Below, one piece after another: positions 1,270 through 24,701 of a DNA stretch of 64,000 bases. The notes under the pieces are model-generated. The model saw only the letters and a list, made by a program, of their open reading frames with translations, was not told the DNA's origin and did no database searches. Source of the stretch: Dipteris shenzhenensis. Lineage: Eukaryota. The position numbers and the translations under genes are program-made. Position 1 is the stretch's first letter, and the number at the start of each line of letters is the position of its first letter. The stretch is from the NCBI GenBank assembly GCA_047967505.1, contig CM106538.1. The stretch is one strand, 5' to 3'.

Positions 1270-2231
1270 GGACCCAACACTTCCCCTGTCTGACTCTATG
1301 TTGCAACCAAAGCACAACCCCTTGGCTCCCTATTGAGGACTTCTAAGTAGCACATCTCCTTGTCTTCTTGACATGTTGAAGCGCTTTTATGAGACCTCTA
1401 CCTTATCGCGATTGAGAATCCTGGCCTCTAGACATCTATAAAACTAGTTGAACATTTTGTGTACTGCATTGCTTTGCACAATACCACCCCTATGCCTTGT
1501 ATTCTTGAAGTATGCTGCCTTTGCTCTGTAGTGTGATTTCTCCATTCCTTGAGTATTCCAAATGGACAGAGGGCCCCATTACTCCACAAACCATGGTGCA
1601 TGTGCGTAAAGAATATGCTGTAAAGAAAAACATTGTATTAGAAACATAAACTGACTCAAGTTTAAAGCACAAAATTTCAATCTAACGAGGATTACCATAT
1701 AATGTGTAATATTTGACTCCCCCCATGCTTCTACCATCAAAGATATGAATTATCCCAACGCTGTCCTGAATCTCTCATAATAAAGCTCATCTATTTGACC
1801 TTGTCTAAGCAACTTTATAAATGCATCAAGCTTTGTCCATAGTTTTGCTCTCAAAGTAGCAATTCATGGATGTGAAGCTTGATTTGTAGTGCACTCACAC
1901 AAATCTTTTCAGTACTCCCAACCTAGGGTGCTTTGAGCTAATGTATGTTTTTCTTTATCAACATGGTGGTTGGACAAGAACCTCCTTGCCTTTCCTCCAC
2001 CCATGGACACTTTAGCAGGAAAATATTGTATCTTTCCTAATTGTTTCTTGTCCTGCCTAAGCTTCACATTGCCTCTATGAAGTCCCATTAGTGAGAGTAG
2101 TTCTTCAGCTTTTGCAATGCATTGTGCAGATACTTGCTATGGCCTCAAATTCCAAACATAAACTAGATGGAGATAGAGTAACTTATCAAGTATATGTAGT
2201 TCAGCATGCAAAGTACACATGTATACCCGCT
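1270..2231 (-). pseudogene. C-terminal half of a RAG1/Transib-like DDE transposase (decayed)
   Basis: Reads ERVYMCTLHAELHILDKLL...VSMGGE/ARRFL...WGESNITHYM, then a GT-AG intron (1695-1618), then HILYAHAPWFVE*WGPLSIWNTQGMEKSH. Compare RAG1 [50 protein letters not shown]. Putative catalytic Glu at 1542-1540. The lower boundary is approximate. Confidence 0.8.
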
Positions 2232-2449
2232 CTCGGGTGGGCTATTCATCATATGTAACCCTATCACGTGAGTTCAACAAAAGGATATTTTTTATTTCTA
2301 AAATTTACAAAAATAAATATACATAAGGGACTATTTAAAATAGTTTTGGAAAAAATTTACAGATTTGTATAGAAAAGGGGTACATTTTATTAATGAAAAA
2401 TTTATAGATAAGGGATTTTAAATATAGGCCTTGAACACACGTGATATAG
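2232..2449. mobile_element. Left part of a ~250 bp MITE (CTCGGG termini, 8-bp TSD), interrupted by Copia-A
   Basis: Begins CTCGGGTGGG...AACCCTATCACGTGAGTTCAA after TACCCGCT (2224-2231). The rest of the right TIR and the second TSD copy are at 20312-20352 on the opposite strand. Confidence 0.8.
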
Positions 2450-2803
2450 TGTTGAGATATCGAGCTCCACTCGTGATATGCCAAGGTGACTGTTGTGCAT
2501 TTATGTCACCGACCTGTTAGAGCTGGAGATGCGGTTGGTACACCGCCCATGAATAATAGCTGGATGACAGCTATCCTTATCTACTCTAGTTTGTGGCTCA
2601 GTTAGTATGCCACCTTAGTTAGTTGAGTTTGGTTTGAGACCCACATATAGGGTTCTTCTATTTCTTTGTACTAGAGTTCTTTTGGCTTTCACAACTAAGA
2701 AGAGGAAAACTGTTTTCAGCCTCCACCTTTGTGTGTATTCCCCCATTGTGATTGTGAGAAAGCCTCAAGTGAGACTCCTTCCCTCTCTCCCACAATCTTC
2801 ACA
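2450..2803 (+). repeat. 5' LTR of Copia-A
   Basis: TGTTGAGA...TTCACA, 354 bp. Preceded by TATAG (2445-2449) and followed by a tRNA-Met PBS TGGTATCAGAGC (2804-2815). Near-identical reverse-complement copy at 20353-20704. Confidence 0.95.
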
Positions 2804-5800
2804 TGGTATCAGAGCCTTGTTCGTGGTAAGGAGCTCAAGAAAGCAAGCCAAGTTCGTGGTGTCCTGGTAAGAGGACCAGTGTTGCTTTCCTATTTCGAGT
2901 TTGGGAGCAAATCTCTGCAGGTAGCACAGCCAGAAGTGCAGGAGTGCACTGTTTCAAATTGAGACGCCCTTCACGGTTTCGGGGCCCGTTTTGAAGGCAG
3001 AAGTTCTTCGCAGGCACTCAGAAAAAGGCCCTGTTTTTGGCTGTGCGACCACTGCGCGGCTAGTTGGTGGAAAGGTGCCGCAGAAATTGCATCGTATGCC
3101 TGTGTGCATAGATATTGGGAGTTACAGATTCATGCCTGTTGCCTGTTGATGCAAAATCGTCACTAGGAAGTGACTGTGTGGTGAAATACCACTTTCGTCA
3201 GTTTTGCAGATCTGCCCGTGTGAGGCAAAAAGCTGTGTTTTTTGCAGTGACAAAATATTTTGCAGTGTTCTGTAATGGCATCTGATTCTCTTTCACAGAT
3301 TGTCACTGAAAAGCTTGACAAGAACAACTTCCAGGCATGGAAGTTTAGAATGACGAATTTCTTGATGGGAAAAGGCTATTGGGAATTCATTACAGGAAAT
3401 GAAGAAGAATCTGTTCTTCCTAATGTTCCTAGTCAACAGGAAATGCAGGCATTCAAAGGATGGCATGAGAGAGCCGGGAAAGTTATGTACTGGCTGTCTA
3501 TCAGTATTTCGGACTCCATGATTGTGCATATTCAGGATGCAAATACGCCAAAGGAGGCATGGGATACTTTGGCAAAAATGTATAGCACAAATACGCAAGC
3601 CAGGAAAATGCAACTCAAACAGGAGTTGCACAATGTGCAGAGAGAAAATTTGAGCATAAATGACTACCACATGAAAGTGAAGAAAATTGCAGATGCACTT
3701 GCTTCCATTGGGTCACCAGTGGATGATGACGATTTGGTTTCTGTGACCTTGAATGGTCTAGGAAAGGATTATGCACACTTCCGGACATCCATTGCCATCC
3801 GTGAAAACTTTCCTAATTTTGAGGAGTTGATTGCTCTTCTAATTTCTAAAGAGCAGAGAAATGGAGGTGCATCTTCTTCAGCAGGAACTTCAAAAGAAAC
3901 TGTCTCTTCTACTCAAATGCTGGCAGAGGTAGAGGCAGAGGTAGAGGAGGCCGATCTGCAGGCCATGGTAGAAATCAGAATATGCAGCAAACGCAAGAAA
4001 ACCAGTCCTATGCAGGAGGACGTGGGAACTCTAGAGGCAGGGGGAGCCAAAGAGGCCGTGGTGGATGGTAGAGAGGCCAAAATGCAAACAGCAATATTGA
4101 ATGCTACTATTGTGGCAAAATGGGTCATATGGCTAAGGACTGCTATAAAAAGCAGAATGACATTATGAATGGAAAATTGCAGTAAGGCAATTATGCATCC
4201 TCTAGTAGACAGTGTGATGACAGAAATGAGCATTTGTTTATGGTGCAGCATATGACAAATTCTGTAACAAGTGCAGAAGAAAGCAATGATGTGTGGTATG
4301 TTGACTCGGGTGCATCAAACCACATGACAGGTCACGCTGAATGGATGCAGGATGCAAGAAAAATGGAAAAACCAGGATTTGTGGAGACTGGTGATGATAG
4401 TGCACATCCTATTGTGCAGATTGGCAAAATTCCTTTGTCTATGTAGGATGGGAAAAAGAAATACTTGTCTGATGTATTTCATGTCCTGAACATCACCAAG
4501 AACCTGGTTTCTGTTGGTCAGATGGTTGAGCAGGGCTTGCAGGTCAGATTTAATCCTCATGGATGCTTTGTTGAGGATATGAAAAATAATGGTCGCTTGA
4601 TAGCAAAAGGAAAGAAGAAGGGCAGGATGTTTACGTTGGATGTAGACATGCCTGAATTGAGTGCAGCAATGTTTGCACATGGGACCGGTGTAGTTGCAGA
4701 TATTGATATCTGGCACAAACGCATTGGTCATGTTAATATACAGCGACTTAAATCAATGCAAGCCCAAAATATTGTTGCAGGATTGCCAAAATTCAAGGTT
4801 GCAGAAATGCACAAGATTTGTGAAGCCTGTCAATTTGGGAAACAAACAAGGAAACCTTTTCCTAGGCATGTTCAAGAGAGTAAAAAACCATTGGAATTAA
4901 TCCACTCTGATGTGTGGACTACAAAAGCTGCATCTATTGGAGGCTGTCACTATTTTGTCACATTTATTGATGACTTCAACAGAAAACTGTGGGTGTATTT
5001 TATGAAAAAGAAAAGTGAAGTGTTTGGGCACTTCAAAGCTTTCAAAGCTATGGTTAAAAAAGAAACAGGCCTGCAAATAAAATGCCTAAGGTCAGATGGA
5101 GGGGGAGAGTACCTCTCAAATGAGTTTGCAAGGTTCTTGCAGGAGCATGGTATAAAGCAGCAATATTCATGCAGTCATACCCCACAGCAAAATGGAATTG
5201 CAAAAAGAAAAAACAGGCATATTGGAGAGGTGTCTCGGGCTATGCTAAATGAAAAAGATCTACCAGATTATTATTGGGCTGAAGCAGTTGCTACGGCAGT
5301 CTATATAATGAACAGGACTCCCACTGCAGCAATACATGGCATGACACCAGAGGAGATGTATACTGGTAGGAAACCAGATATTTCTCATTTGAAGATTTTT
5401 GGTTACATTGCTTATGTCCATGTGCCAGATGAGTTGAGGTCCAAGTTGGATCCAAAAGCTGAGAAGTGCGTCTTTATTGGTTATTCTCTGCAGCAGAAAG
5501 GGTATAGATGCTATAATCCTTCTACACGTAAGTTCACAGTGAGCAGAGATGTTGTTTTTTATGAGATGAGCAGCTGGTATAAACCAGTAAATGTGATGAT
5601 TGATGTAGATGCACAAAATGGTAATGCTGCACAGAATGCACAGCAGCAATCACAAAATATCAGTGGACCTGGAGTGTCCTCTACTAGTGGTTCACATACT
5701 TCACCATGGACAGGCAGATTGAGATCAGGAGAATCCCCTCAAAGCAATGCAGATAGTGGTACGCAGGTATCACAAAAAGGAAAAGAGAAGGTAGATCAGC

Positions 5801-5902
5801 CCATGTTTGATGTGAATGCAGGTCACTCTTATGTGGATGGTGAATCCAGTGGCTCAGAATAGAGCATTGATGATGAGTTGGGTATTCCTTCTGTTGTTAC
5901 AC
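2450..5902 (+). mobile_element. Copia-A 5' half: LTR, PBS, gag, zinc knuckle, protease, integrase; broken at the inversion breakpoint
   Basis: gag from ATG 3275 (EKLDKNNFQAWK), CYYCGKMGHMAKDC knuckle after a frameshift, protease WYVDSGASNHM, WHKRIGH/CEACQFGK, integrase HSDVW...RSDGGGEY...TPQQNG. Internal stops. Ends abruptly at LGIPSVVT. Confidence 0.95.
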
Positions 5903-6306
5903 GCTTTAAAATTTTATCTAATCATTATGCCCCCACGATGCACAATTCAAGGTCAAATCTCATGTCCAATTTGAGCTTGATTGAGGATTTAAAAATTTTG
6001 CTAAATAGCGAAATGTTGCGTTCACAAGGTTTCACCCAGTTGAGGACAGAATCTAGATTGATCGGATGGTGTGAAGCTACTAATGTGACTCTAAACTCTA
6101 GATCATGTAAACTAAGCATGTAATTATGTAAACAGAAACAATCGAGCAAAATATCCAAGTCCCCCCAAAACACCTTCCAAAGGACAGCTTAATTATGTCA
6201 TGTAAGGTATCAAACTAGTGTTCATTACGTGCAGCTGATTTTGCAATAACAGGAAAAGACACGATTAACGCTCGAGCTCAGGGCAGACAGAATGCTTCGT
6301 ACCCTT

Positions 6307-7600
6307 CGCAGTTTTCCCCACGCCAGGCTCCCCTATGAGTACAGGATTGTTCTTTGTTTTCCTTGAAAGGATTTGAATACAACGACGAATTTTGTCATCT
6401 CGACCAATCACAGGATCCAGCTTTCCTTGCCTAGCCATTTCTGTCAAATCTTTCCCATACTTCTCCAGAGCCTCGTACTTTCCTTCGGCATCTGCAAGTT
6501 GCACATTACTAGAAGTGAGCTCCTCTTCACTTCAAAGCTCTGTTTCGTTGTAATAACGCAACCAAAGTTTTTAATTACATGTGAAGGTGGGACATCCACC
6601 CTGATCAGTAACCTTCTGACTTCCACGAATAGCCTTGATTGCCTCTCTCAAAGCTTTTTCCGTAAGATTGACCTCCTTGAATAGCTGTTGGCCGAAGCGC
6701 TTATCCTGCGCCAAGGCGAGCGCTAGATGCTCTAGCGATAGAAACGAACGAATCTCCCATTTCCTTCTTATAAGATTTTGCTCGCTCTATCAATGCCTCC
6801 AAATCCCGGCCAAGCATGGTACCACTTGTTTCACCGTGCACCTACATCACATGGGACTAATGGCCAACTTGTTGCAGACGTCGAATTCAAGCTCACATCA
6901 GAATTGACTAATCTACTTACCTTTGGCTGGCGTTGTATGAACCTCTCTGTTGCTTGCAAAAGAGCTGTATTGTCAAGACCGGCCTTCGCAAAGTTGCGAC
7001 GAGCTAACCCGTTCCGTTGCTCTAGCAATGCCTTCATCAGGTGCTCGGTCTCCACAATCTGGTGCTTGCTCTCTTTTGCGACCTCGGTAGCCTGGAGGAG
7101 TGCTTGCCAAGCCATTTCTGTAAATTGTGACTGCTCTATCTGCAAAGGGTGCAAAGTGCTTTTCTCAGGAAAGCTCAAACCCATCAGAGAAACCTCATTT
7201 CTGATAAAACCCAGAATCTTAGGGCCATAGTCCGCATGTTTGCATGCATTCAATCTAGAGAGGGAAGCCAAATTGACTTAGCCGTGAATATATGAGGATG
7301 AGGACGTTGCAGATGACGAATTAAGCCTGCAACGTTCTCTTTGCAGCATTCGCTAAAGCATTTGAGTATTTACCGTGCCAGCTTCACTTCTAGGTGACGG
7401 TTGATAGCTTCTCGTCTGAATTCTGTTCGGCCTCCAAATCCGTTTTGCCCCTGCTTGTCTAAAACCTGCGAAGTTTTGAAAGGTTCCATTCCCGCAAGCA
7501 ATAAGCGACGCAGAAGCTACAGCTCTGACTCGACAACTTTTGCCAACCGTACTCCCAGTCGTGCCTACTGCAACAGCCGGCCCCTTAGAGGTTTTGGGAG
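6307..7600 (-). pseudogene. CLPB3: Truncated organellar ClpB/Hsp100 chaperone (ClpB3-like), N-terminal exons only
   Basis: Exons read FTEMAWQ...IVETEHLMKALLEQRNGLARR...FIQRQPK, then LEHLALALAQDKRFGQQLF...IRGSQKVTDQ, then [62 protein letters not shown]. Introns are GT-AG. Homology stops right after Walker A, and one exon is frameshifted. Confidence 0.85.
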
Positions 7601-7845
7601 GACAAGCAACACCCACAGTCCAAAATCTCACAAACCTGGGCGTACTGGGAAGTCCAGCAGGACAGAAAGTGAACACTCTTGCATACGTGGAGCCTGACTG
7701 AAAAGCGAAATACGGGCTGAAACGTCAAGAGTAGGTGGTCAAGCAAGCATGAACGTGAATTTCTTGAGCTAAAGATGAATATGAAGGGAAGACATGCCTG
7801 TCGATGTGGCTCTGGCGCTATTCCAGAGCATCGTGGGAAGAAATG

Positions 7846-8260
7846 AGAGACGAACTTTTCGTATTTTCAAACCTTCAACCATCACGTAGGCTAAATTTGT
7901 TACATCAGCCCTTTCTATGATTACCTGCGTACTTTACACAAGGGGTGGTTGGACACGGATGGCGGGTTGATTCATGTGGCACATTTAGATTCGACCAATG
8001 GCACACGAAAGGAAAATTTGTTCCACACCGCCCCTGGCCCAAGCACTCGTCAAGATATCTCTAACCAATGAAATAATTTGGCTATTCCAAAGGATCCTTA
8101 AAACTAATGAGAGAGATGAACTTTCCATGTTTTCAAACCTTCGACCATTATGTTCTATATTTGTTACATCAACCTTCTCTATGATCGTGTGCCTACTTTA
8201 TTACATAATTATGGTAGAAAATGGGTGTTGATTGACATGGCACAAGACTGATTGGACCAA
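7846..8260 (+). repeat. Diverged ~150 bp direct duplication upstream of the ClpB fragment
   Basis: GAGACGAACTTT...TTTCAAACCTTC...TTTGTTACATCA...GTTGATT...TGGCACA...GACCAA occurs at about 7846-7999 and again at about 8111-8260. Confidence 0.7.
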
Positions 8261-8383
8261 CTTCTAACCAATTACAAATTTTGGCAAACTGTAGAAGTCA
8301 AGATTTGAACCTATGTTGTTACTAATGCCCAATAACATTCTCACCCACATTAAAGTTGTGAAAAGTACCTAGCAAATAAGTGG

Positions 8384-8632
8384 CTCGAGGGGTGTACTAC
8401 TAAGAAACCCTAGGTATCACGTGTGCATTCAAGGAGTATTTAAAAAACCCCTCAACTAAATTTTTTCCCCCAATAAAGATACCCCTCTTAACTTATGGAC
8501 TAACAGAATTTGAATTTTACAACCCTTATTGTTCTTGTAAATCGGTTAAATTTTTTCCAAAAGTTCCATTAAAATACCCCTCCTTTTGAATGCACGTGGT
8601 ATACTAAAATTTTGAGAGGTGAATCCCCTAAG
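8384..8632. mobile_element. Intact MITE with 8-bp TSD, related to the MITE at 2232
   Basis: TSD ATAAGTGG at 8376-8383 and 8633-8640. Termini CTCGAGGGG and CCCCTAAG. Inner inverted motifs CACGTGTGCATTCAA and TTGAATGCACGTG. Confidence 0.85.
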
Positions 8633-9399
8633 ATAAGTGGACATATGGGGGGTTAGCAAAGATAAGAAAGTGGAAAAGAAAAGGGGGGAAGGGAGGGTTG
8701 CTTGTAAGAAAAAATTTTCCTAAGAAAATTGTGTGTGTGTGTGTCCTTCCTTTTGTGATGTTACTATGGTTGGTGCCCTTTCGACTAAGATTGTGAAAGA
8801 CAAACATAGTATAGCTGCTTTTACGCATCTTCAAAATGATATGGCTAATAGGATTGATGTCAAGGCACATGAAGCTTGTTGATTTGCCTTTGTTTTTTTC
8901 CCTCACAGAATTTTCTCTCATGTATATACCACTAAAGGGTGTCTCCTTTCTTATGTTTACCAGGTTGACAAAGCACACTCCCAATTGCATACTTGGATCC
9001 ATCAACATGAACATAAGAGACTTCACAAAAAGAAAGTCACCAAGAGCCTAACAAATTGGTTAATGATACTATGCCACCTAGTACCCATAGCACATGTCAT
9101 GCTAGCTCAACACCATCAGAGGCTGATCTTCGAGAAGTGCTGGAGTACTTCAAGAATTACACAAGTGGCAGTGTCCCCATAGCAATGCCAAGACCACTAA
9201 GAGAATCTAAATTTCAAGACAACACTAACATTGGAGAAACTCCAATCAATGAGGGACCGACAAAAACTCACACAATAAACCTCGCCCTTGAAGGGGAAGA
9301 AGAATGGATGAGGAAGAACAGGGGGACATAAATTTGCTGGTGGGGATGTATAGGAAGTGGGAAAAAAATTATCAGATTTTTGGATAAATTTTGATAGAG

Positions 9400-12300
9400 T
9401 TCTGGGGTAATAGCTATGGTGATGACCTCGCAGGGTAGGCTTGCTTTTATAGAAATTTATCCCCCTGACCGGTGGGATACTGGTATGGCGACAGTCGGTG
9501 GTGAACCTCAATGGCGATAGTTGATGTGGAGTATCTTAGGCTGTGGCCAGTGTGGTACTCGAATGGTGATGAGCTGGTGCTATTTTGGATGGCGATGACC
9601 CGATGGGGTAATGTGATCACGAGGGTGAGCGGTTAACATATCGACGATGGTCATTGGCAAACATTTCAGCGACAGACGGTGTTGTACTAGTTTGGCGAGG
9701 GCTAGGGGGTAGTGACTGTGTAAAAATAGGGAAAAGAGAAGGAAGGAGGAGTGGGGTGGGGAAAAATGTGGACTAAGTGGAGTGCACTTTGTGTGGTGCA
9801 ACGTGATGGTGGGGTCAGCATGCAAGAACATGAACACTTGTAAAAATGAAAGAATGGACTCTAATCACCTGGTGCTAATCGTGTGTGCACGTGCGGTGTG
9901 TTCGGCAGGGACTAGTGGATTGTGGGTGCATCGGGTGAGATGCCTACCGTACTGACTCACATAGACGTAGAACAATGATTATGATGAATGCGGTGGAGGA
10001 GAGCGCCATACTACAACATAGCGAGTGAGGAGGAGCCATGTAGAGTATGCGTCCAACTTGTTCCTTACCTTGGATGCTAGGGGCACCTTTGTGTCAAACT
10101 TTGTTGTTGTTGTGGGGTTTGACTTCCTTGGAGAAGCAAGCTTTCGTGAGTCTACCTGTGGGGTTGGCCCTTGCTTGTGTAAGTAGGGCGGCACCATTAC
10201 TTTCGAGTGTCCATCCCGAGGGTGAGGTTCTTGTGTAACTCTTTGTGGGTGGAACTTGGTTCTTGTGGAGTTTCTCGACTAATGGTAGCGATGCTTGTGT
10301 TAAGTCGGACTGCCTGTGGCATGAATGCATATTCGGTATCTTGAGGCTGGCTTGCTGGGTCCGGTTTGTTGGCAGGTTCTTGTGGTGTTGTATCCTAGAA
10401 AGACACAGGTTCTTGTGGTGCTGCCTTTGATGCCATTGAGAGTTGCCCTGTCTTTTTTTGGATCTAGGCGACTTTGTTGCCTTGGCCGCCTGAGTGGGCG
10501 GTATTGCTTGAACTATTGGCGATGTGTGGTGATGGATGAGGCGTGAGCTCACGGTGCAACTTTCTTTGGTTAGTGCATGTGTGTGGGAGAAGCGATCTTG
10601 AGGTGATCGGAGCTACTGTTGCAGCATGACCGTTCTCTGGGTGTCGGTTCTGATCGCGAAGTGATGTTGGGCACAGAGGATAGCATCTTGTACTTGTAGC
10701 TCTCGAATTTCTTGAGCAAAGGATGGTAGCGTTGGTTGAGCGTGCAATGGCATTGGTTTACCACTATGGTAAGCTTTCTTCTCCTTTTGAGCTGGGCCCT
10801 TAAGTGGGGTGCTGGTGGAGGCTGGGGCTTCCAATCGGCCTTGCTGCGTCGCTTCATTGTCGTGAATCGATGAGGTCGGGGTCGAAGAGAGGGGGCTTGG
10901 TCTGCACAGCAGGACTATCATCGTTTGGCCACCATTGGCAAATGAAGTAGTTTAGGCGCGAGTCGATTTGGCAGTTGACGGCGTAGCACCGGGTTCTTCC
11001 TAGAATAATTTGCTCTTTAGTGGCTTTTGTAGGGAGAGCATAAAAGCGTATATCCACAACTTGGTGAACAACCATTAGACTTAGATTTACATAACCCAAG
11101 GTTTGCAAAAGTTGGCTGTTTATAGCTCTTATTGAGGCAATAATGAGGGTTAGGGGTACCTGTAGCTTTTCCCATACCTCTCAGGAGATGAAGTTGTGGC
11201 TCGCTCCTGGGTCCACGAGTGCTTTGATGCACATGTGTGGTACCTATAGCTGAACAAGCAACTTGGCTGGCTCTATTGTTAGCTCATCCATTAGTTGCAT
11301 CTATTCAATCATTGCCTTAAGAAGAGTCATTTGTCTACACTATCCGAATCTTAGCATTACAGATTATGGCTCCTCGATGGCCTGGTGCTTCATCTTGGCC
11401 ACCTCTGCCTCGAGTTGCCATCCCTAAGCCCAACCATCAATGCTAGAAAAGGAGCAAAACCTACCCAAGATTCCCATGTACAACAAGCTAGGCCAGTAGT
11501 TCGAGGGATTGGAGGTAGGAGCAGTCTATTCATCCAATTGGACAGATCATGCCATAGGATGGGATTTCCTCTTAGCAGAGATGTCATCGGAATTTTCACC
11601 TCTGTCGATAGGAAGGTAGCCAGCCCGACACTGTCACAGGGTCCTGGGCAAGCTTCTTCCTCCATGGACATGTCATCAAAGCCATACAAGTCTCCTTCGT
11701 CTTGGAGGTTATGCAGCACTGGGTCTTCTTGGAACATCTTTTGCATCAGATCCGGAGCTTGTGACTGCTCTAAGCTGAGGTGTTCCTCTTCCTCCACTCT
11801 TTCTGGGACCTTGAGTGATTTCACTCCTTAGTGTCCCATCAGGTGGGCTGGATGGATAGTATCTAACACCCTACTGGCCTTTAGTTGATGCTCAAAATTA
11901 TCTTGGCAATCACGCACCAAGTTCTGGGCATCCTTTATGTATTGCTTTTTAAAGATCGGGTTAGGGTAGGTCTCTTTATAGGTGGGCGCAGGTGCCAAGC
12001 CCTGAGCCTACACTGGATTGTTCACTCCTGGAGTCAGGGGCACCTCAAGGTCACCCTAGGTGGAAGACTGTTTAGAAGCAGAGGAGGTGGTAAGGGTAGC
12101 CATCTATTGATTGGACCCGTCCTAGATGAGCACTTGGTCAGAACTGTCACCTACTCGAATGGCCTTCTTGGAATGAGTTAGAGGATGTAGAGGAATCTCG
12201 AGACCGGGCAACAGGGATACTCTTCCTTGTGAGCTTCCTCATGGCCTTGCCTAGTTCCTGGGCTTGCATCCTTTTAATGACTTGTAGTGGCACTACAGCC

Positions 12301-15300
12301 ACATGGCCTTGTTCGATGCTAAGCAGATTGAGGCTGATGCCCTTTGGTGGGGTGAGGGGAGTGGTTGGTCTTATGGGAAAGTCCTGGAATAGATGCTCTG
12401 TTCCACATCCTACACACAAAGGGTTGGGGTTGGTTGTGGTTGGGGCATTGGGCGTACGATCCCTATATGGACAGTCCTTTAAGAAGTGTGGGCCCTGGCA
12501 TTTGAAACATGACACCAGTGGGTTTGAAGTGCCTTGGTAGGGGCATTCACTTGCTCTATGGGGACCTTGGTAGTTATAACATTGGAGTGGGGGCCTCCGA
12601 GCAATTGAGTTCAAATCTCTCGCTCTTGCATTTATGGGGGCAAAGTCTGGAATACAGGGACTTGTTGATCCTCTGGTGGGCGGCAGTGAGTCATGTAGGG
12701 CTCCACTCCCTTCCTCATAGGGGTAATAATCATGAGGTCCATGATCAAGATCCGTTTCCTCTCGGTCATTGGGTAACTCTTCAACCAACACTTGATTGAT
12801 TGGGGCAATGCAAGGTAGCGGGGGTTGTGGACCTAGTATGGGTGGTGGTAGTAGAGTAGCCCAATACTAGGTAGAGCTTGCCATAGGGTTGAGAGATTTG
12901 GGGGTTGGATGCGGCTATTAGGGCCAATGGGGGTCACATTTGATACATGGGTTGGGGAAGGGACCTCGAAAATCAACATTGGGAGGTATCATGGTCTCCC
13001 CATCTATGGCAGTGTGCACAGTAGAGTGCCGACCTTGCCCTTAGGTGTGGGCGCTCATTGGAGGGGTGGTTGCCAACATTGTCTCTTCATGGAAACAAGT
13101 AGGGATTGCTCAGTGCCTCTTTGGAGGTTCTTGTTCTCCATTTCTAACCTAGCTGCTCCAACAGAGTGGAGGCTAGCTCACTCACATCCAAGGTTTTAGG
13201 ATCGTTAGCCTCCTTCTAGCTTGATTCTACACTTGAGGACCTAACCAATGGGGCTAGATTGGAGGGGGTCGAGGCCTTGTCCGAATCCACTTTATCCATC
13301 ATATTGTCACATATACGGATGGCAACCTTGCTGCATAGATCAAAGGAGGTGGGGTTCATCACCATGTCATGCAGCTTTGGGTCTGCTAGCCCGATAAGGA
13401 AGCGAGGCAACAGTCATTCGTCGCTCATGTGCTCATAGGGTTCACAGTGGGCATTGAGGTGCTTAATCCTCACAATGTAATCCCTCAGGGATTCCTTGTC
13501 GTTTTGTTTCACCCCATACAATTGGTTGATCGGGCTCCATTTATGGCCACTGGGGGTGAGTCCCACAATAAAAGCCTTTCTCAATGTGTCCCAATTGATC
13601 TTTTCCTCTAGAGTGAGAGCCCTATACCATTGACCAACCTTGCCATCCAGGCTAAGGCTGAATGCATTAGCCATCTCAAGGTCACCTGATACACCAAAGG
13701 CTTCACAATCTGCTCGAACCATTCCACATGGGAGACCGGGTCTCCTTCTCCAAGGAACTCGGTCATTAGCTTGGAAATGGCTATGGGACGGCTTCTTGAG
13801 GGATTTGCCATCCTTGTAGGGAACACTGGGGAGGGTGGAGGTGGTGTTGGCCCCCTTCCTAGGGAATTCACCAAAATACGCATTGCCTCATCTCGGTCAA
13901 CACCATTTGAGCAGCTAGCAGAGGTGGTGTTGTTGTGGCCCTGACGGGTCACAGGGCTGGGGCCCAAGTGGTGGTGTCCATGTAGTTGCTGGTGTCAGCA
14001 TTGGGATGGAAGTACCCATACCTACTTTCATTGGTGCAATCGGTATAGATGGGAAGGGATGGACTCCCAGAGGTGGTGGGTCATGGGGCATGGTAATGTT
14101 GGTTCCATGCAGTGGGCGGTAGGGTGGGAACTGCGGTGCCCCATAGTTGACGAAGGTTAGGGGCCGGGGCTATTAGAGGGTCATAAAGCATTTCACCTTG
14201 GAAGTTCCTAGTATCCCCTCGACTCGGGTCTTGTCTACAAAGTTCCCTCATCCATGGATATTCATCATCCATGTTCTCCCACTTGGGAAGTTTGGCATAC
14301 GCAGAGGAACTTGGTTCGACGAAGGTAGTTTCTATCCCGATTTGGGGCTCGGGGACTTTGAATAGCGATGGGTGGTGTGATGGAGTAACGCGATGGTGGA
14401 GGGGAACGATTATGACCATGGATGGAGGGGTGGGTTTGCCACATTGACGGCAAGGTAGTAGAATAGCAACGGTCGATAGGAAACCACTACAATCCCGGTC
14501 AACGACTTATCAGGTCGGTGTAAAAGTAACTCTGACATGCATTAACTTCGGGCAGTGGGGTAAACTGTAGTCAAAGGTTAGGTCAATGGGGAAGCGCTAT
14601 GGCATCGGCGGGTCAATGCAAGTTGACTAGTGGGATCTGGCTAACGCGCCGATCGGTGGGGAAACTAGTCGGTGCGATATGCTACAGCGCCGACTCGGTG
14701 GGATAGTCATACACAGTTTCGCCGATTGAGATTTTATGATTTTTGAGAATTTTGCAATTTTTGTTCATGATTTTTTGTGGTGGGGGGGTGCTACAGTACT
14801 TAATCTACCTACTCAATGAAAAAAAACTTGAAAACAAACACTTTTTGGAAGTCAAAATGCAAAAACTCAAAAAAGGGGAGTTCTAGAACTTAAAACTACT
14901 TCAAAACTTGACAAAAATCCTTCGTTTTGTTGTTTTTTGAGGTGATTAGACCACACACACACCTTAGCAATCAAGCCTTCTAAGTTGTATCAATTTGAAA
15001 CACCAAAAAACATAAAAAACAAGCTTCCCATGCTCACAAATGGCATTCCTACAAGAAAAAACAGATTTCCGTCCTCTCTCTCACCTTTCACCTCTCTTCT
15101 CTCTTACAACTCCACTAACAAGCTCCAAGTTAAGCTTGAAGACTTGTGCAATGGGAATATATCGAAGGGAGATAGGTGCAAATGCAAAAGCATACCTTTT
15201 ATCCCTGACAATGGTGCCAAAAATGTAGTGGGTCTCAGCCGGTGACTCACGTATTGTGGGGTAGTTGAAGATATGATGACGGAGTCTCCAATCTTAGCTA

Positions 15301-16239
15301 CTCCACAATGCATAGCATGAGCCATCTGCAAGTGTCACTTAAGTGGCCTCCCGATTGTTGCAATGTGGTTTCACGCAAGGAAGAGGGAAGAGGAAGAGGG
15401 GAGGGGAGAGGAAGAAGGAGGGGAGAAGGAGGGAGAAGGAAGGGAAGAAGGAGAAGGGAATGAAGGGGGACAAAGTGACAACCACAAAGGCACTACAATG
15501 GAAACAAGAGACACCCAAAACACTCTTTTGGAAGAGAAGAGGGAGCTTGTATTCAAACTTGTGCAAACAACAATGAAGACCAAAGTCAACCATTTGGTCT
15601 TTTATACATGTCACCTTTTGAAGGGAGGGCCAACACTTTTCCTTTTTAGCACTCTCCCTTACTTTACAACCATGGGCTCTTGGGCTCGTAGGGCACCAAG
15701 GCATATTGCTATTCTTACTGACTCTCCCTACTAGTGGAAATAGCACTTTTGTTAGCCATATTAAAGGGCTTGGGAAAAGCCTGGCATTAGGAGGTGGTCC
15801 TAACCGGTTCCTAAAGACTGCTTGTGTTTGCGTCGCCACTCCTAGGCTTGTGTGATTTGGGGCTCAAACTACCTGAGTTTGAGTTGTACTCCTTTCATGG
15901 CTATTTTTGTTTGCGTTGCTATTTTTTGTGGATGAGGAGCTAAAAAGTGCAAGGTGCATGGGCCCAGAAGTGTGCATCTCCTTGTTCCGGGTGGTGGTAG
16001 CTAGAACATACAACCTGTGCCTAGGATCCTTGAATCCTTGGACTTTGGGTATTTGGGGATCAAACTCCATGAGTTTGAGCTATACTCCTTCCGTGTGCAC
16101 ATTGCTTGTAATCATTGACCTTGTGTATTTGGGTATCAAACTCCCTTGATCTTGTCCTATTGAAGTAGATCATTCGGCTTGGTCACCTTTACTCCTTGAT
16201 TACCCTGCATTTGGCGGTTGTACTCTGTGGATGTTCACA
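9400..16239 (-). mobile_element. Decayed Gypsy (Athila/Tat-like) element: LTR, PBS, gag, three zinc knuckles, protease remnant; no recognisable RT
   Basis: The LTR end ...CCACTACA (15224) is followed by a degenerate tRNA-Asp PBS TTTTGGCACCATTGTCAGGGA (about 15202-15222). gag at 13216-13790 (FSLSLDGKVGQWY, QNDKESLRDYIVR, RFLIGL). Cx2Cx4Hx4C-like motifs in ORF 12147-12791. ILGRTRCYAVNCQID protease-like remnant near 10960-11010. Both outer boundaries are approximate. Confidence 0.7.
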
Positions 16240-17059
16240 AATTTGGAGGGATGTTTTTGTTCCTAGGTAAAGTGATAACGAACTAGGGGAAACATGCATT
16301 CTACCCAAATTAAGCGATATTGTTTTAACATATGGTTTATTTGGATGGTGGCAGGTAAGTGGATCCTAACCTTGGAGCCTAGACTACCTGATGGATTTGA
16401 CGCTTATTTACCATTACAAAAATTTTGGACTTAAAAAGGGGCTCTTTGGAGTACTACTAAAATATTAGAGGCTTGGATATGGGAATATGGTATCCATGAA
16501 GGAGATTATGCTATGTGGACTTCTCTGTAAAATAGAGGCTCCCCAAATCTAGGGAAAATCTCTTTTTTTTTTCAAAATACCCCAAAAAACGTGATTGGTG
16601 CTTCACAATTAAAAATTATTTTTGGCAAGCATGCCCTGACCATGTCAGGCCTTCTTGTTTTCCTACCATGGCAAACTATCCCCTAGCTAGAACTATGCTC
16701 ACGTTTTTCATTTGGTTCAACCATTTGGCCCAAACTTTGACTTCCTAACCAGCAGCTCTCTCCCTATTCTCTCACTTTCTAGCAGCTAGTTTCAAGATAT
16801 CTTCATTCCACTCTTGATTAGTCATTCTCTCTCCTCTTTGCTCACGTTTTTCTTCCACATTCGAAAATCTCTCAGAGAAACTTTTGCCCAAGATTTGTTC
16901 ATCCCTCTTCTCTTCCATTCATTCTCTACTTATTTCACTCTCTCTTAGAAACCAAAGTTGCGACCAAAATTGCTTGGAAGGAGTGAAAAAAACGGGTGTT
17001 CTTTACAAGACATAGGGAAGAGGGAGAGATTGAGGTAGATGATATTTAAAACTTCAAGA

Positions 17060-17215
17060 ATTTTTTTCTTCACTGGTATAGGAGGGATAGAGAGAGAGAG
17101 AGAGAGAGAGATATTATTTTGTGTTTTCTATTTGAGGGGATGAGTGAGGGAGAGAGAGACATTAAATAGTCATTTTTTTCTTCATTAGTATAGGAGGAAT
17201 AGATATAGGAAGGGG

Positions 17216-17251
<36 letters not shown>

Positions 17252-17460
17252 ATTTAAAACTGCTATTTTTAAAAATCTATTTGAGGGAATGAGTGAGGAG
17301 AGAGATAGAAAATAGTCATTTTTTCTTTGCTAGTATAGGAGGGGTAGATAGAGGAAGGGAAAAGAGAGAAAGAGATTATATTTCGAATTGCTATGTTTTC
17401 TTCTGTTGAGGGGATGATTGAGGGAGAGAGACAGAGATTGTAGTTCAAACTGCTAGGTTT
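17060..17460 (+). repeat. About three degenerate tandem units (~110-150 bp) containing (GA)n tracts
   Basis: Recurrent TTTTCTT...GTATAGGAGG...ATAGA, (GA)n, and CTATTTGAGGG.ATGAGTGAGG motifs. Confidence 0.65.
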
Positions 17461-17720
17461 TAGAAGTATTTGAGAAAGAAGGAAGAAAAAGAGATCCTAA
17501 TCAAAGAGTTTTGGGAGGGAGAGAGAGAGTGATATGATATTGATAATGTTTTCTTTGTTTGTGGAGAAACAGAGCAGGAAGAGAGTATATCGTAAACTAA
17601 GTATTTCAAAAAAATTTGGTGTTTGATAGACTAGGAGAGAGAGAAGTATTCTATGTTTTTTGTAATAATATTTTGTTTGTTTTTGTGAGAGGTTTAGTTA
17701 AAGTAAGAGGGAAGGAGGGG

Positions 17721-17759
<39 letters not shown>

Positions 17760-17856
17760 GCAAAGAAAGAGAAAGAGAGAATCGAAGACATAAATTTGGA
17801 GGGTCTTTCGAAGTAGAAAGAGCTAATTTTAATCATATGGTACAGGGGCAGAAACT

Positions 17857-20319
17857 ATGGAAGTAGAAAATCATAGATATAGAAGTAGTTTACAGTCTAT
17901 TGTACTAAAGAATGTCAAGGATGAGCATGGGGAATGGATTCTTCAGCTCTATAGGAAATATTCTTGGATCACAATGCAACCCACTAATTGTGGGTGCTAC
18001 AAAGTGGGTCAGAGGGATGCAATGGACATCTCCAAACATTGGAAGGGAACGGGTCTTAGATTTTGAAATTTCTCTTGGCAGTAACACAATGACATAGGTA
18101 TATATTTAGCATGTCTTTACCCATGCAAACATATATGTGCATCCGAATGTAGGACTTTCATATCGTAGGCCCTCTCCTCTGCTCCTCCCTCCTGCAAAAT
18201 CTCTCCCCTCCTCCTCCCTCCTGTAGCATCTCTCCCCTCCTCCTCCCTTTTGTAACAACTCCTTCCCTTCCTTCTACACCTGTCACCCTACTCTCCTTCT
18301 CTTCCTCTTGCCCTCATCTGCTTCTCCTCCTCCCTCTTCCCTGCTACTCTCTCCCTCTCACTGCTCCATCTTTGCCAGCTCTCCCCTACAGTTTAGCCTG
18401 CATCACTGATACCTCTCTTTGCGTACTCATGGCACCATTCGAGGACATATCCAACAAGTACCATGTGAACCTACAACTGGAGGCAGAATATGCAAGCACA
18501 CGATGTTTGTGATATAGTGGAACTCCTCAAAGTGTGCTCCATAGTCTTTGATTGCAAGGGAAGAAGCATCTTGACCTTTGGGTGGATGGAAACGTGTATC
18601 CTTTAGACCCTGCCACCCAAAAGAGTCCTCCTTTTCATACAGTGCATGATGTTGTTAGGTTTGTTGGCAAGGGACATGCTGGATTGCTTGGTTATTGCAA
18701 TTGATTGAACCATTCTTAGACATTGGCTATGTAAGCAAGCGAGGTGCAGAGAGCCCAAACAAAAGAACTTACACATTTGAGAAATATTACTATTGTGGCA
18801 ATACATAATAGTATGCAGGATCTCCAATTGCAAAACAAAGAACTCTAACAAAGCACATGCACTAGACTTGGAGCGACATGAATTGGAAGAATCAATCCAG
18901 AAGCTCACTAAAAGCAAACAAGATTTGGAAAGGTCTATCTATGGCCAAGTTCAATGTCCTATGGAGAAGGAATGAGAGAAGTTAATAGAACGAGTACAAA
19001 AGTTAAACGGAACACCTTTGGGACTGAAGGAGAGGAAAAGACAATTGCAATCTATGGATGCATTGTCAACCAATAGTGGTGCCCGAAAGAGGAGAATACG
19101 GGTTGCAAGGTTAGTTCCCCAAATTTTCAATGAAATTTCTTACTCCAAAATATTCATGGTGTTGCATTGTTTCCTTTAAGACTCATTTGTACTCTACTTT
19201 AGGAATTTTATGGAGGATGTGATGGGAACAATAGAAATGGATGATAGTGATCCTTCATATGTTCTAAGAAGTTTAATAAAGCCAAGTGATGTCATGGAAG
19301 TGCTGAAGGACCCTAGACAAAAAGGGCTACATGAACAAGTTGTTAGAGAGGTAATGAAGGATTTCAAGGGCCTCGTGGAAGCAAAGGAGGTGCTTGGAGC
19401 TTGTGATGTTGCTAGTGTAAGTCGTGAAGCTTACAACTCTGTTTTTAAAATTTTCAAGTCTGCTATGGAGGAAAAGTATAAGATATCTACAATGCCATTG
19501 CTAACACCATGGTCTATAAGGCTTGCACGTCAAGAAACAAACCAATGTGCTAGAGAAAAGCTTGGAGGATACCATTGTGTAAGTGGCACAATGACTTGGA
19601 AGAGTAAAAAGAAATCTAGCATCCAAACGTTTGAGATGAATGCTTTCAATAATGTTTATGTGGATGTAGAGAATTTGTAGAGAGCCATGGTCAAATTCTA
19701 TGGGACGAGAGAAGAAGGTAAGAGAAATTCCCTCTTCGCATTCAACTTTATTTCTTCTCATTTCTATATCCTTACTATATTTCTCTTTCATTGTATAGAT
19801 GGCAAGCTAGTATTTGTTATGAAAATGGATGAAGCTCAATTGGTAAAAGAGCACAAGCTAGAGAGGGTGAGCATTTGTATTATGAATGATGCCTTGCATT
19901 TTGCTCAAGGGGATGAGGAAGTTGAGCAAGGTTTCTCAGTCTAATATGAGAAGGACATATGGTGGCTTGTAGCCTTTAAGACGCCAAAGGAGTGCCACGA
20001 GACATTGAAGTGGGTTTTAGAGAGAACCGGCATCCTATCGATTATTTGAAGACAAGAGGCAGGGCAAACATTAATAGTGGATGGGCATGAAACGTTTCAA
20101 GTTGAATGGCATCTAGCTGGTGATTTGAAGACCCTCAAGTGCTTGTATGATTGTGATACAGGTGTAGATGGAAAATGGACATGCTTGTATTGCACCCACT
20201 CTCAGAAGATGCAAAAGTGGGAAAATGGCATCCTTTCTTGCAACCAAAGTGCAGCCCTTGATCATCACAAAAAGGATCCTAAGTGGGTCCCCATTCTACC
20301 AATTCCATTGGAGCGGGTA
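17857..20319 (+). pseudogene. N-terminal and central part of the RAG1/Transib-like transposase
   Basis: Multi-exon, with introns at about 19110-19202 and 19718-19798. Motifs KLVFVMKMDEA (first Asp candidate) and HLAGDLKTLKCLY...GKWTCLYC (compare RAG1 GTGYDEKLVREVEG...SVYICTLC). Ends PIPLERV, which joins ERVYMCTLH at 2232 on the minus strand. The 5' boundary is uncertain. Confidence 0.75.
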
Positions 20320-20352
20320 CTCGGGGGGGTCACTGTGCATAAACCCTCTATA
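20320..20352. mobile_element. Right end of the split MITE
   Basis: CTCGGGGGGGTCACTGTGCATAAACCCTC follows AGCGGGTA (20312-20319), the reverse complement of TSD TACCCGCT. Confidence 0.8.
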
Positions 20353-20704
20353 TGTGAAGATTGTGGGAGAGAGGGAAGGAGTCTCACTTGAGGCTTTCTC
20401 ACAATCACAATGGGGGAATACACACAAAGGTGGAGGCTGAAAACAGTTTTCCTCTTCTTAGTTGTGAAAGCCAAAAGAACTCTAGTACAAAGAAATAGAA
20501 GAACCCTATATGTGGGTCTCAAACCAAACTCAACTAACTAAGGTGGCATACTAACTGAGCCACAAACTAGAGTAGATAAGGATAGCTATCATCCAGCTAT
20601 TATTCATGGGCGGTGTACCAACCGCATCTCCAGCTAATAGGTCGGTGACATAAATGCACAACAGTCACCCTGGCATATCGCGAGTGGAGCTCAATATCTC
20701 AACA
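20353..20704 (-). repeat. 3' LTR of Copia-A
   Basis: 352 bp reverse complement of 2450-2803, with about 5 substitutions and a 2-bp indel by eye. The PPT (GAGGGGGAG) is at 20705-20713. Flank CTATA (20348-20352) is the reverse complement of TATAG. Confidence 0.95.
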
Positions 20705-22404
20705 CTCCCCCTCGAGCTCAATCCCAATTCCTGCACACCAAGCAGGTCTCTGAACTTGCGCAGCTTCTCTGCGCCCAATGCTTTCGTGAAGATGTCAGCT
20801 ACCTGATCCTCTGTGCTGACATAAACTAGATCAATGAGACCTAGTAAAACCTTCTCCCACACATAGTGATAATGCACCTCAATGTGCTTTGTTCTGGCAT
20901 GAAAGACTGGGTCCTTTGCCAAATGTATACTACTCATGTTGTCACAATAAATGACAACTGGCCCATCTGTAGACTGATGCATATCATAGAGTAGCTTATG
21001 CAACCAAGCTACCTCACATGCAGCCATTGCTGCACCCCTGTACTCAGCCTCTGTGCTCGACAAGGCAACTGTAGGCTGTTTCTTGCTGCTCCAAGTGACT
21101 GCAGCACTCCCAAAAGAGAACACATATCCACTGGTAGATCGTCTATCAGAAATGCTACCAGCCCAATCAGCATCAGTGTATCCATGCAACTGTATCTGAA
21201 CCCCAGCCTCATAAAATAGTCCATACTGCAATGTGGACTTCACATACCTGAGTATGCATCTAGCCGCATCCAAATGCGGTTTCCTTGGAGCCTGCATAAA
21301 CTGACTTACCTACCCAACATCATAGCTCAAATCTGGCCTGGTAATAGTCATGTAAATCAAACTTCCTACTATGCGTCTGTACATAGTAGGGTCTTCCAGA
21401 AGCTCACCTGCATCTGTGCTCAGCTTCACATTCTGCTCCAAAGGAACTGAAATAGGCTTACAGCCTGTCATCCCATATTTGGACAGCATGTCCAATGCAT
21501 ACTGCCTCTGCAAGAGCTGTATCCCACTTGGTGATCTAATCACCTCAATGCCCAAGAAATAACGCAGCTCTCCCAAATCCTTCATCTCAAACTTCTGCCT
21601 CAATAGCATTTTCACATGAAGGATATCTTCATCACTATCACCTGTGATGATCAAATCATCAACATAAATGACCAACAGCATAATCCCTTTCTCTGTTTTT
21701 CTCACATAGAGTGAGAAATCTGCCTTGGAAATCTGAAAGCCAATAGTGACAAGATACTGTCCTATCTTGTCAGACCATGCTCTAGGTGCTTGCTTCAAGC
21801 CATACAAGGCTTTCTTCAACCTGCAAACAAACTCAGGATGAATAGCATAAACATAACCTGCTGGCTGCTCCATAAAGACCTCTTCTTGCAAATCACCATG
21901 CAAGAAGGCATTCTTTACATCCATCTGATGTAAAGACCATCCCTTTGATGCAGCCATAGCAATGGCTGCTCTTACGGTTGCCATCCTTGCAACGGGGCTG
22001 AAAGTTTCTTCATAATCAATGCCATATATCTATGCATACCCCTTGACAACTAATCTTGCCTTGTATCTATTCACAGAACCATCTGCATTGTGCTTGATCT
22101 TATAAACCCACTTACAGCCAATTGCATTCTTGCCTTTAGGCAAAGGCACCAATTCCCATGTAGCATTAGCATCCAAGGCATCCATTTCTTCATCCATGGC
22201 TTTCTCCCATTTTTCATTTCCCATGGCTTGCTCAAAAGAAGTGGGTTCTGGTTCCTGTATCACTTTGACCATATAGGCATAGTGAATGGCTCTAAATCCA
22301 TCATATTTCAGCCTATCCACAGGATACCTAACCCTGGTAGACCTGCGCAAAATAGGCTCACTTCCAGGTGCTCTCAAAACATCCCTGGTCTTCCTTACTC
22401 CAGG
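20353..22404 (-). mobile_element. Copia-A 3' half: RT, RNase H, PPT, LTR
   Basis: EPTSFEQA...[66 protein letters not shown]. Starts PGVRKTRD at 22404, continuing LGIPSVVT at 5901. Confidence 0.95.
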
Positions 22405-22733
22405 ATGTCCTCCTCCTCTTCCACGATGGCGACTCTTCCCAGCTCGTCGAGAAAGCTGAGGTTATCAATGAAGGCAGAATAAGCTCCGTCAGTGGAGAGC
22501 CGTTCGTACTTTTCTTCAAAGGGCTTAGTGCAACGCTAGATGAGGGGCTTCCCTCTTCCGTAGGAACTATGATTGTAGCTCCAATTGCGGCGTTTGCTCG
22601 AGAATTGCATCTTCTATTAGTCTTTGAATTTCAGGATCCTCGTTGCAGACTACCTAGCTTTAAGGAACGGCTTGGCAGCTGCATTGGAGTTGAAGATCTT
22701 ACATGTTCAAACAGTTGGAGATAGCAAGCTAAG

Positions 22734-23017
22734 AGCTTCTTGAAGATCCCGCGCTTAATCAGATATTTGCATGCAAATCTATGGGCTTGAGACACTTTTG
22801 TTCATCGTGCAAACTTGTAATCAAAAATGTCTTCAAAGCAGAAAGACAAGCTTGGAACAGAACTCAGCTTCTTGAAGATCCAGTAGGTTTTCGAACAGAC
22901 CCGCGCTTAATCAGATATTTGCATGCAAATCTATGGGCTTGAGACACTTTTGTTTATGGTGCAAACTTGTAATAAAAAATGTCTTCAAAGCAGAAAGACA
23001 AGCTTGGAACAGAACTC
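22734..23017 (+). repeat. Tandem duplication (~132 and ~152 bp units)
   Basis: AGCTTCTTGAAGATCC...CGCGCTTAATCAGATATTTGCATGC...GCTTGGAACAGAACTC occurs twice. Confidence 0.85.
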
Positions 23018-24013
23018 GTAAGTGCATTCGAATATTGGTTGCGTACACAGAACTTGTTGGTAGATGAATGGAGCTATAAAGATCTCATGGCCGACTGTGC
23101 GGAAATTGGCAACCGAAGTGATCGATTTGATCAATCAGCTAGAGATTTTCGAGCTGTTAATTTTTCCCAGAACGGAACGTCACTCAACTACTTGGGATCG
23201 GCGATTCGTCCGTATTATCCATGCCTCATTCCTTGGTGTACGAAAATCCCGCTTGTAAAGCCAGGGTAGAGAACGTGAATCAGCAATTGTTCTTTAGCCC
23301 CCCACCACGGCTTCCCAAGTTTCAGTCTGAAGGCGGCGAAAGGGATGTAAGCCATCTCATCTTCCACCCACCACGGATGGAAGTACGGAAAGCACAATTC
23401 ATAGCTCTGCTGATATGCATATAAAGAAGAAACGATGCTCCTGTTGCATTTGCAAATGGTTTGAGCACAATCAAGATCCCAGCCTTTGGATTTGTTGCAC
23501 GAACCAGTCTGGTTGAGCTCCACGTGCCACTCCATATACTTTCCATGGTCTTCCCGAATCCCGGTGTATCTATGATCAGGGCAGAATCTCAAAAAGTGCA
23601 ATCGCCACCAGTGCTTAAATTTATTGGGCAGATTGAGCTTCATTAGACTTTTGGGCTTCCTATGACTCCCAAGAATTTCAGCAGCGGAGCATTCATGAAG
23701 CTCAAGCATATCTCCAAGACTTCAACACATAATATACATAGTGCATATAGTTAGTAGTTAGAATTTATCTACTATACTACTAATATGTATCCCAAATAAT
23801 GTGAGTCTCCCTGCTCTAGAATCTCAAGGGCCTGGCATCAGTCTCGGAGTTCGTGCAATTGTCATCTTCAGCTTAAAATGAGATTCGTACGCAGTGTCAT
23901 CTTCATTTTGAAGCTTAAATTTTTTCCAAAGACTTCACGGAATTTCTTATGAAGCCTAGAGGTGTGCAGCAAATTTAAGCACTCATCGCCACGATGTCAG
24001 TGACTACCTCTAC

Positions 24014-24701
24014 CACTACTACACACAGGTCCTATTCTGACGCTTAAGGATCGACGATTAGTGCGCGCGGAGCACTAATCATCGGTAACCAAAGCGGGAT
24101 TCGTCGTTAAGGGTCGCTATATAGTGACTTTAGGCAAACATCGCTATATAGCGACCTTTATTAGACTTGTAAATGGTCGCTATATAGCGACACTTATTAG
24201 ACTTGTAAATGGTCGCTATATAGCGACACTGAGACAGTTTCCTATAGCGACATTTTACAAAGAGTTTTTTCTCATACCAACCTTAAAAGATAGTTTTTCC
24301 CAATGATTAATTTTTTTTCTTTTTCATACATGTTTGAACCTTTGAGAGAATAAAAGTACAAGAGTATGTACATCAAGCCTTTGAAGCTCATATATTCATG
24401 TCCAAGTTTGAGATGAAAAAAATCAATGAAGAGCATTTACGTCAACGGCTTCATTCGGAGCCAAGTCTAACGTGCCAAACAAGTCTATCTCTAACTCTAT
24501 ACCGAGTTGATCTCCTATATCATCATCGTACTCTAGCATCGTACGTTCACCTAAGAGTACTTGATCATCTTCTTCAATAAAGTGTGGTGATTCTTGATGA
24601 TCGTCATCTTCTTCCTCAATATCCTGATCTCCATCTTCCTCCTGTACGATGTCATTATGCGCATCTTCCTCTTGGCTCATATTATGATCTTCATCTTCTT
24701 C
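24014..24701 (-). mobile_element. CACTA terminal fragment: terminus, subterminal repeats and acidic C-terminal coding tail
   Basis: CACTACTACACA at 24014. Palindromic GTCGCTATATAGCGAC repeats at about 24112-24252. Homologous to 24702-25365. Confidence 0.85.

Follow-up and report, generated by a model that had tools for sequence, protein, structure and literature searches.

Several routes by which chromosomal inversions arise have been described. Inversions induced in plants by nucleases are also repaired by non-homologous end-joining (NHEJ). In Drosophila, inversions connected with Galileo are reported to result from ectopic recombination between transposon copies in inverted orientation (PMC2775673), and at maize p1/p2 inversions are reported to arise by alternative transposition of Ac/Ds-type elements (PMC8225341). 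Other mechanisms of inversion are treated in PMC6423853. Here we describe a locus of Dipteris shenzhenensis (GenBank assembly GCA_047967505.1, contig CM106538.1), in which a segment of 16,503 bp (5902-22404) separates the two halves of a Ty1/copia retrotransposon, called Copia below. The analysed stretch, referred to as the window, comprises 64,000 nt of one strand and does not contain a single N. The evidence supports that, compared with the order at the time when first a miniature inverted-repeat transposable element (MITE) and then Copia inserted, 5902-22404 now lies in reverse orientation. A two-break inversion sealed by end-joining is the best reading of this locus, to which we assign a probability of roughly 0.7.

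Flipping 5902-22404 restores three structures that are nested in each other: the Copia polyprotein, the 5-bp target-site duplication (TSD) of Copia inside a MITE with its own 8-bp TSD, and the open reading frame (ORF) which was interrupted by this MITE. The first half of Copia, with gag, protease and integrase, is located at 2450-5901 (+) and the second half, with reverse transcriptase (RT) and RNase H, at 22404-20353 (-), both defined by the long terminal repeats (LTRs), Pfam and blastx. Their summed length is 5,504 bp. The 5' LTR has the ends TG...CA and a length of 354 bp (2450-2803, +), and the 3' LTR spans 352 bp (20704-20353, -). In self-BLAST the two LTRs are found in inverted orientation with 98.04% identity over 357 aligned columns, and in the pairwise alignment the differences consist of five substitutions, all of them transitions, and one 2-bp indel. 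A primer-binding site TGGTATCAGAGC, which we take to match the 3' end of the initiator tRNA-Met, directly adjoins the 5' LTR (2804-2815, +), and a polypurine tract GAGGGGGAG precedes the 3' LTR (20713-20705, -). Both were read directly from the sequence.

The coding region for gag, protease, integrase and an SH3-like domain extends over 3278-5901 (+) and that for RT and RNase H over 22404-20668 (-), each supported by Pfam and blastx. Pfam detected Retrotran_gag_2, gag_pre-integrs, rve and SH3_retrovirus in 3251-5859 (+) and RVT_2 in 22404-21313 (-). The order gag-protease-integrase-RT-RNase H follows from these domains and from the alignment to residues 3-878 and 879-1457 of the homologue P0001 (1457 aa), the closest full-length protein among the matches listed, with 63-70% identity. 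Together with the TG...CA LTRs, the 5-bp TSD, the primer-binding site, the polypurine tract and the position of integrase before RT, this places the element in Ty1/copia. The homologues listed include proteins annotated as 'Retrovirus-related Pol polyprotein from transposon TNT 1-94'. The best database match of Copia reached 64%, and close relatives of this genome seem not to be represented in that database.

Each half of Copia was compared separately and unjoined by blastx with 10 of at least 120 listed homologues, namely the closest ones and some named proteins. Half A aligns to the N-terminal part only and half B to the C-terminal part only in all ten cases. For P0001, half A covers residues 3-207 and 271-878, the last of which ends at position 5901, and half B covers residues 879-1457, the first of which begins at position 22404. 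P0001 reads GIPSIKT878|P879GVRK unbroken, and the window encodes GIPSVVT up to 5901 and PGVRK from 22404 onward, thus the Copia junction is exact to the codon with respect to this protein. For P0002 the corresponding residue numbers are 486 and 485. The alignment to P0004 runs 12 codons past 22404, with a weak match that looks like chance. Because neither half breaks off within a codon and, in comparison with P0001, no residue is lost, the junction is most simply explained by zero net base loss. Two junctions result from this. Junction 1 (5901..5902), set by the end of the blastx alignment at residue 878, joins the linker between integrase and RT to intron-like DNA downstream of exon 4 of a ClpB3-like fragment, and junction 2 (22404..22405), set by the alignment start at residue 879, joins the same linker to unannotated DNA.

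The outer nests were read at the far ends of the two halves. Copia is flanked by the TSD TATAG at 2445-2449 (+) and 20352-20348 (-), both read directly. Outside of it lie the two parts of an AT-rich, non-coding, MITE-like element, also read directly: a left part of 218 bp at 2232-2449 (+), which begins with CTCGGGTGGG, and a right end of 28 bp that stands together with the right Copia TSD at 20320-20352 (-), so that the MITE measures 246 bp in total. Its terminal inverted repeat is imperfect (CTCGGGTGGG... versus CTCGGGGGGG...), with 9 of the first 10 positions matching and AACCCT ending both arms. The MITE in turn is bordered by the 8-bp TSD TACCCGCT, which was read directly at 2224-2231 (+) and 20319-20312 (-). 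By the length of this TSD alone, the MITE presumably belongs to the hAT superfamily, and hAT-like is used as a candidate label. Within the window only one related copy, with 72% identity, was seen at 8415-8591, and weak matches occur near 43.4 kb.

The third nest is a transposase-like ORF. Its N-terminal part (18456-20319, +) ends at the MITE site, and its C-terminal part (1399-2229, -) is a pseudogene with a stop at 2139-2137; both were delimited by tblastn. The 90-aa ORF ending at 20319 has six longer homologues, and all six of them match the plus strand as far as 20319 and resume on the minus strand, from 2226-2232 down to 1399-1693. The residue numbers abut at the MITE site in every case (86/84, 379/379, 157/155, 585/584, 389/388 and 113/113), with an overlap of 0-3 residues that corresponds to the duplicated TSD. 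The homologue P0397 reads PIPLERVHICTLHAEL unbroken across the site. No Pfam family was found for this ORF or for four of its homologues. An Atlas language-model search points to clusters of the Plavaka/Transposase_21 type, which we treat as a lead only, and the relatives include a hypothetical protein of Klebsormidium and proteins of up to 898 aa. The ORF may represent an undescribed transposase family in green plants.

A first-pass annotation of the same DNA, made from the sequence alone, had already proposed the inversion, and its coordinates all hold on re-reading. It described Copia halves that point towards each other, which agrees with the inverted LTR pair and the complementary domain content, and LTRs differing at about six positions, which correspond to the five transitions and the 2-bp indel. 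The three nested joins that it saw restored by the inversion are borne out as well, since the TSDs TATAG and TACCCGCT are read directly at both outer ends and both frames are supported by homologues. In LGIPSVVT|PGVRK the last codon of the first part ends at 5901 and the first codon of the second part begins at 22404, and P0001 is continuous across the join; PIPLERV|YMCTLH (20299-20319, +, and 2223-2206, -) is genuine coding sequence, in which P0397 is continuous. The latter is the frame across the MITE site and is distinct from the second inversion junction.

That truncated elements are common is all that speaks for the view that two independent truncated Copia copies merely resemble the halves of one element. 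In this case the 5-bp and the 8-bp TSD, the MITE ends, the 878|879 boundary and the continuous host ORF would all have to coincide. By our estimate, the odds that a 5-mer and an 8-mer match by chance and that, in a homologue of 1457 aa, the residue numbers also abut are below 1e-10. Two independent copies are refuted by the nested joins and are hardly credible.

The sequences at the breakpoints are unrelated to each other. When the flanks of ±300 bp were compared, the best local score was 8 in direct and 9 in inverted orientation, and in 200 shuffles the score averaged 9.2 and reached 14 at most. One base is ambiguous, being either the C at 5902 or the G at 22404, which amounts to a microhomology of 0-1 bp or to the duplication of a single base. 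No other copy of the junction flanks was found in the window by sensitive BLASTN, where the sole hit was a local 152-bp tandem repeat. Inverted repeats spanning both breakpoints, as expected for non-allelic homologous recombination, are absent, and around the Copia break there is no duplication that resembles a target site, with at most 1 bp shared. In local alignment and flank BLASTN the breakpoints therefore lack homology, as expected for a simple end-joining inversion. The first-pass annotation had likewise seen no repeat and at most 1 bp of microhomology at the breakpoints, which the scores of 8-9 against the shuffled mean of 9.2 confirm, and its preference for end-joining over ectopic recombination fits this absence of homology. 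As a separate observation, an AT-only palindrome TAAAATTTTA is located at 5906-5916, within the segment and 5-14 nt away from breakpoint 5902.

An inversion by ectopic recombination between repeats or by alternative transposition of a DNA transposon has to be weighed here. Both mechanisms are documented elsewhere, in maize (PMC8225341) and for Drosophila Galileo (PMC2775673), and DNA-transposon remnants are present in the window in the form of MITEs and of Transposase_21 and DUF4218 matches at 26063-29726. However, neither an inverted nor a direct repeat is found at the two breakpoints, and the break in Copia is not surrounded by a duplicated target site (at most 1 bp shared). The CACTA terminal motif, for which a single motif was searched, has no match at either breakpoint either: in the window 45 matches were obtained, each with 2 or 3 mismatches, where about 30 are expected, and none with fewer than 2. 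As the breakpoints are devoid of repeats and TSD, a repeat- or transposase-mediated inversion is largely refuted, and we consider it very improbable. End-joining is favoured over both mechanisms because the flanks lack homology, repeats and a TSD.

The order of events would then be the following. The 246-bp MITE would first have inserted into a remnant of the transposase-like gene and generated the 8-bp TSD, and the 5.5-kb Ty1/copia element would later have inserted into the MITE, generating the 5-bp TSD. Subsequently two double-strand breaks would have occurred, presumably at the same time, one in the linker between integrase and RT of Copia and the other about 14.4 kb past the 3' end of Copia. 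This second break would have hit intron-like DNA, about 400 bp behind exon 4 of the ClpB3-like fragment. The 16,503-bp piece would have been re-ligated in reverse by homology-independent end-joining, probably NHEJ, with zero net base loss at the Copia break. That the inversion postdates the insertion of Copia is supported.

For the reciprocal junction we propose that, before the event, 22405 onward would have been preceded by the reverse complement of 5902 onward, and this join was presumably as clean as the one in Copia. Several points weigh against the simple two-break inversion. The join of 22405 with the reverse complement of 5902 is bridged neither by an ORF nor by a Pfam family or a repeat. 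The later ClpB exons are absent from the 64 kb, with all 16 longer homologues (picked from at least 150 listed for tblastn) stopping at the Walker A exon (6283-6319), and among 324 ORFs (141 + 63 + 120) of the window outside the Copia 5' half, none gave an AAA or ClpB domain in Pfam. At the Copia junction, the variable linker between integrase and RT stops aligning short of the break in 8 of the 10 homologues, so that the exactness depends mainly on one homologue with 63-70% identity. Finally, the arrangement is known from one assembled sequence. The first-pass description of a split 'almost without base loss' consequently stands for the Copia junction (878|879 in P0001) but finds no support at the reciprocal one.

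The ClpB3-like sequence next to junction 1 is a pseudogene fragment at 6304-7256 (-), recognized by Pfam, tblastn and reading of the sequence, that encodes two Clp_N repeats followed by the beginning of NBD1 as far as Walker A. It ends with GEPGVGKTA at 6307, followed by a GT donor at about 6304, which puts breakpoint 5902 about 400 bp into the would-be next intron after exon 4. A 4-nt insertion near 6735-6745 shifts the frame, no in-frame start was seen in the fragment, and the combination of N-domain, two AAA+ modules and middle domain in one frame that makes up an intact ClpB3 is not present in 6304-7256. The fragment resembles the chloroplast Hsp100, retains introns, possibly reaches 7724 and shows a transit-peptide-like region. 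If the ClpB3-like copy was once whole, its later exons would be expected on the plus strand to the right of 22405, and none is located there. To the right of junction 2, Pfam gave no family for any ORF at 22405-23300, about 900 bp. At E <= 1, a search with 10 ORFs for a family at or across the junction yielded only a chance-level match to TRASH (E = 0.2), and an Atlas search with the 168-aa ORF at 23218-23721 returned nothing usable.

These observations bear on a more complex rearrangement, in which the same inversion was accompanied by a third break and a deletion or foreign DNA at junction 2, so that 5902 and 22405 had not been adjacent at any time. The remainder of the ClpB3-like copy would have been part of the lost piece. 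Such an event would account for the end of this copy behind exon 4, where a GT donor (about 6304) is separated from the breakpoint by only some 400 bp of intron-like DNA, for the lack of any later ClpB part in the window (16 of 16 homologues) and for the shift from AT-rich intron-like DNA to an ORF-like, GC-richer stretch at the proposed ancestral join. However, the 4-nt frameshift fits an old, already truncated fragment, further gene fragments are present in the neighbourhood, namely a PHD remnant of the VIN3/Oberon type and a PB1 ORF, and the exact Copia junction argues for clean repair. The frameshift suggests that the ClpB3-like copy, probably an old duplicated gene fragment, was already dead before the event, which weakens the objection from the missing exons without removing it. 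We judge the complex rearrangement unlikely. More doubtful still is the specific version of a multi-break event that removed or displaced the 3' two-thirds of a ClpB3 paralogue and left junction 2 as a second-order join. If true, the locus would record a small, one-off germ-line shattering and rejoining that could be dated by the split Copia.

The simple two-break inversion also has to be set against an assembly artefact, i.e., a misoriented contig segment or a chimeric read, with an intact Copia on the true chromosome. Transposon-rich regions are prone to assembly errors, and a single assembled sequence constitutes the whole evidence; the first-pass annotation had pointed to an artefact as well. 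On the other hand, the sequence has no N gaps, neither of the junctions coincides with a repeat that would confuse an assembler, neither is a fold-back in which a sequence is joined to its own reverse complement, and both match the Copia frame to the base. An artefact is less likely because the junctions are free of gaps, repeats and fold-back structure, and we give it a rather slim chance. The arrangement is probably real in the organism.

At the substitution level the Copia LTRs are 98.6% identical, and five substitutions over about 352 sites correspond to K of about 0.014. An LTR rate of 1.3e-8 per site per year is often used, which was derived from rice and may not suit this taxon. With this rate the insertion of Copia would be about 0.5 million years old, which is an upper bound only for the inversion. 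The copy is defective: in-frame stops are located at 4183, 4444 and 5860 on the plus strand and at 22032-22030 and 21312-21310 on the minus strand, and the gag/pol frame changes between 3886 and 4078. The first-pass term 'young' for Copia therefore agrees with the LTR identity but is overstated in view of the five stops and the frame change. Likewise, 'recent' for the event holds insofar as the inversion postdates the Copia insertion, whereas the LTR divergence yields only its maximum age.

If reads confirm the arrangement, the locus would be a natural example of a homology-free, base-exact inversion with an ancestral state proven by three nested insertions. It could then serve as a marker for the comparison of haplotypes or accessions and as a data point on double-strand break repair in plants. 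No intact gene was found to be disturbed, as what was cut is a defunct retrotransposon and, at the other end, the stretch behind a ClpB3-like fragment that is likewise dead.

Further features were observed in the window. In the GC-richer 10-14 kb part of the inverted segment, a Retrotrans_gag fragment of the Ty3 type is present at 13417-13887 (-). Near junction 2, to the right of which the 152-bp tandem repeat is found, a remnant of a VIN3/Oberon-type PHD finger (RCSCCICKWFEHNQDPSLWICC) is located at 23331-23513 (+), with E = 1.2e-5 and below the cut-off of Pfam. It ends in a stop and overlaps the 168-aa antisense ORF, for which no family is known. It is followed by two tandem units of about 690 bp (24009-25365) with 84% identity, each of which begins with CACTACTACACA and which contain arrays of the palindrome GTCGCTATATAGCGAC. 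The sequence CACTACTACACACAGG occurs in the window only at the starts of these two units, at 24014 and 24702. The units look like the subterminal region of a CACTA-type element, and at 26063-29726 (-) CACTA-type transposase remnants give one Transposase_21 match and two DUF4218 matches, the DUF4218 part being present twice.

Two direct repeats of 340 bp, 100% identical and 2.4 kb apart (56054-56393 and 58449-58788), could be the ends of a very young small LTR element, and an inverted copy of this repeat with 88% similarity lies at 26985-27343, inside the region of the CACTA remnants. A second Copia-like unit (30642-36443) is bounded by 257-bp direct repeats with 97.7% identity and encodes gag, protease, integrase and an SH3-like domain, but neither RT nor RNase H. 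Its right repeat begins within the SH3-bearing ORF, and a PB1-domain ORF (31344-31862) is situated on the opposite strand between the left repeat and gag. In addition, an open frame of 397 aa with S1 / RRP5-type RNA-binding domains at 45847-47037 (-) is probably an exon of a host gene.

In comparison with known systems, the split element shares with plant Ty1/copia elements the LTR ends, the 5-bp TSD, the primer-binding site, the polypurine tract and the gag-protease-integrase-RT-RNase H order, and differs from them in being split and in carrying five in-frame stops, the closest listed database protein being 63-70% identical. With the Galileo-type inversions (PMC2775673), the locus has a transposable element at a breakpoint in common. 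However, only one of its breakpoints lies in a transposon, the other is without a second copy, and the element was cut instead of being present as chimeric full-length copies. The Ac/Ds-type inversions (PMC8225341) resemble it as small intrachromosomal inversions in a transposon-rich plant genome, but neither junction shows a DNA-transposon terminus or a new TSD. Small end-joined inversions are a known class, of which this locus is a neat example without a new mechanism. As in known two-break NHEJ inversions, the breakpoint sequences are unrelated, microhomology is limited to 0-1 bp, repeats and transposon ends are absent and the one junction open to a check, that in Copia, is precise. The locus is the same in kind, and here three nested insertions (the ORF, the MITE and Copia) fix the ancestral order and set an upper limit to the age of the event.

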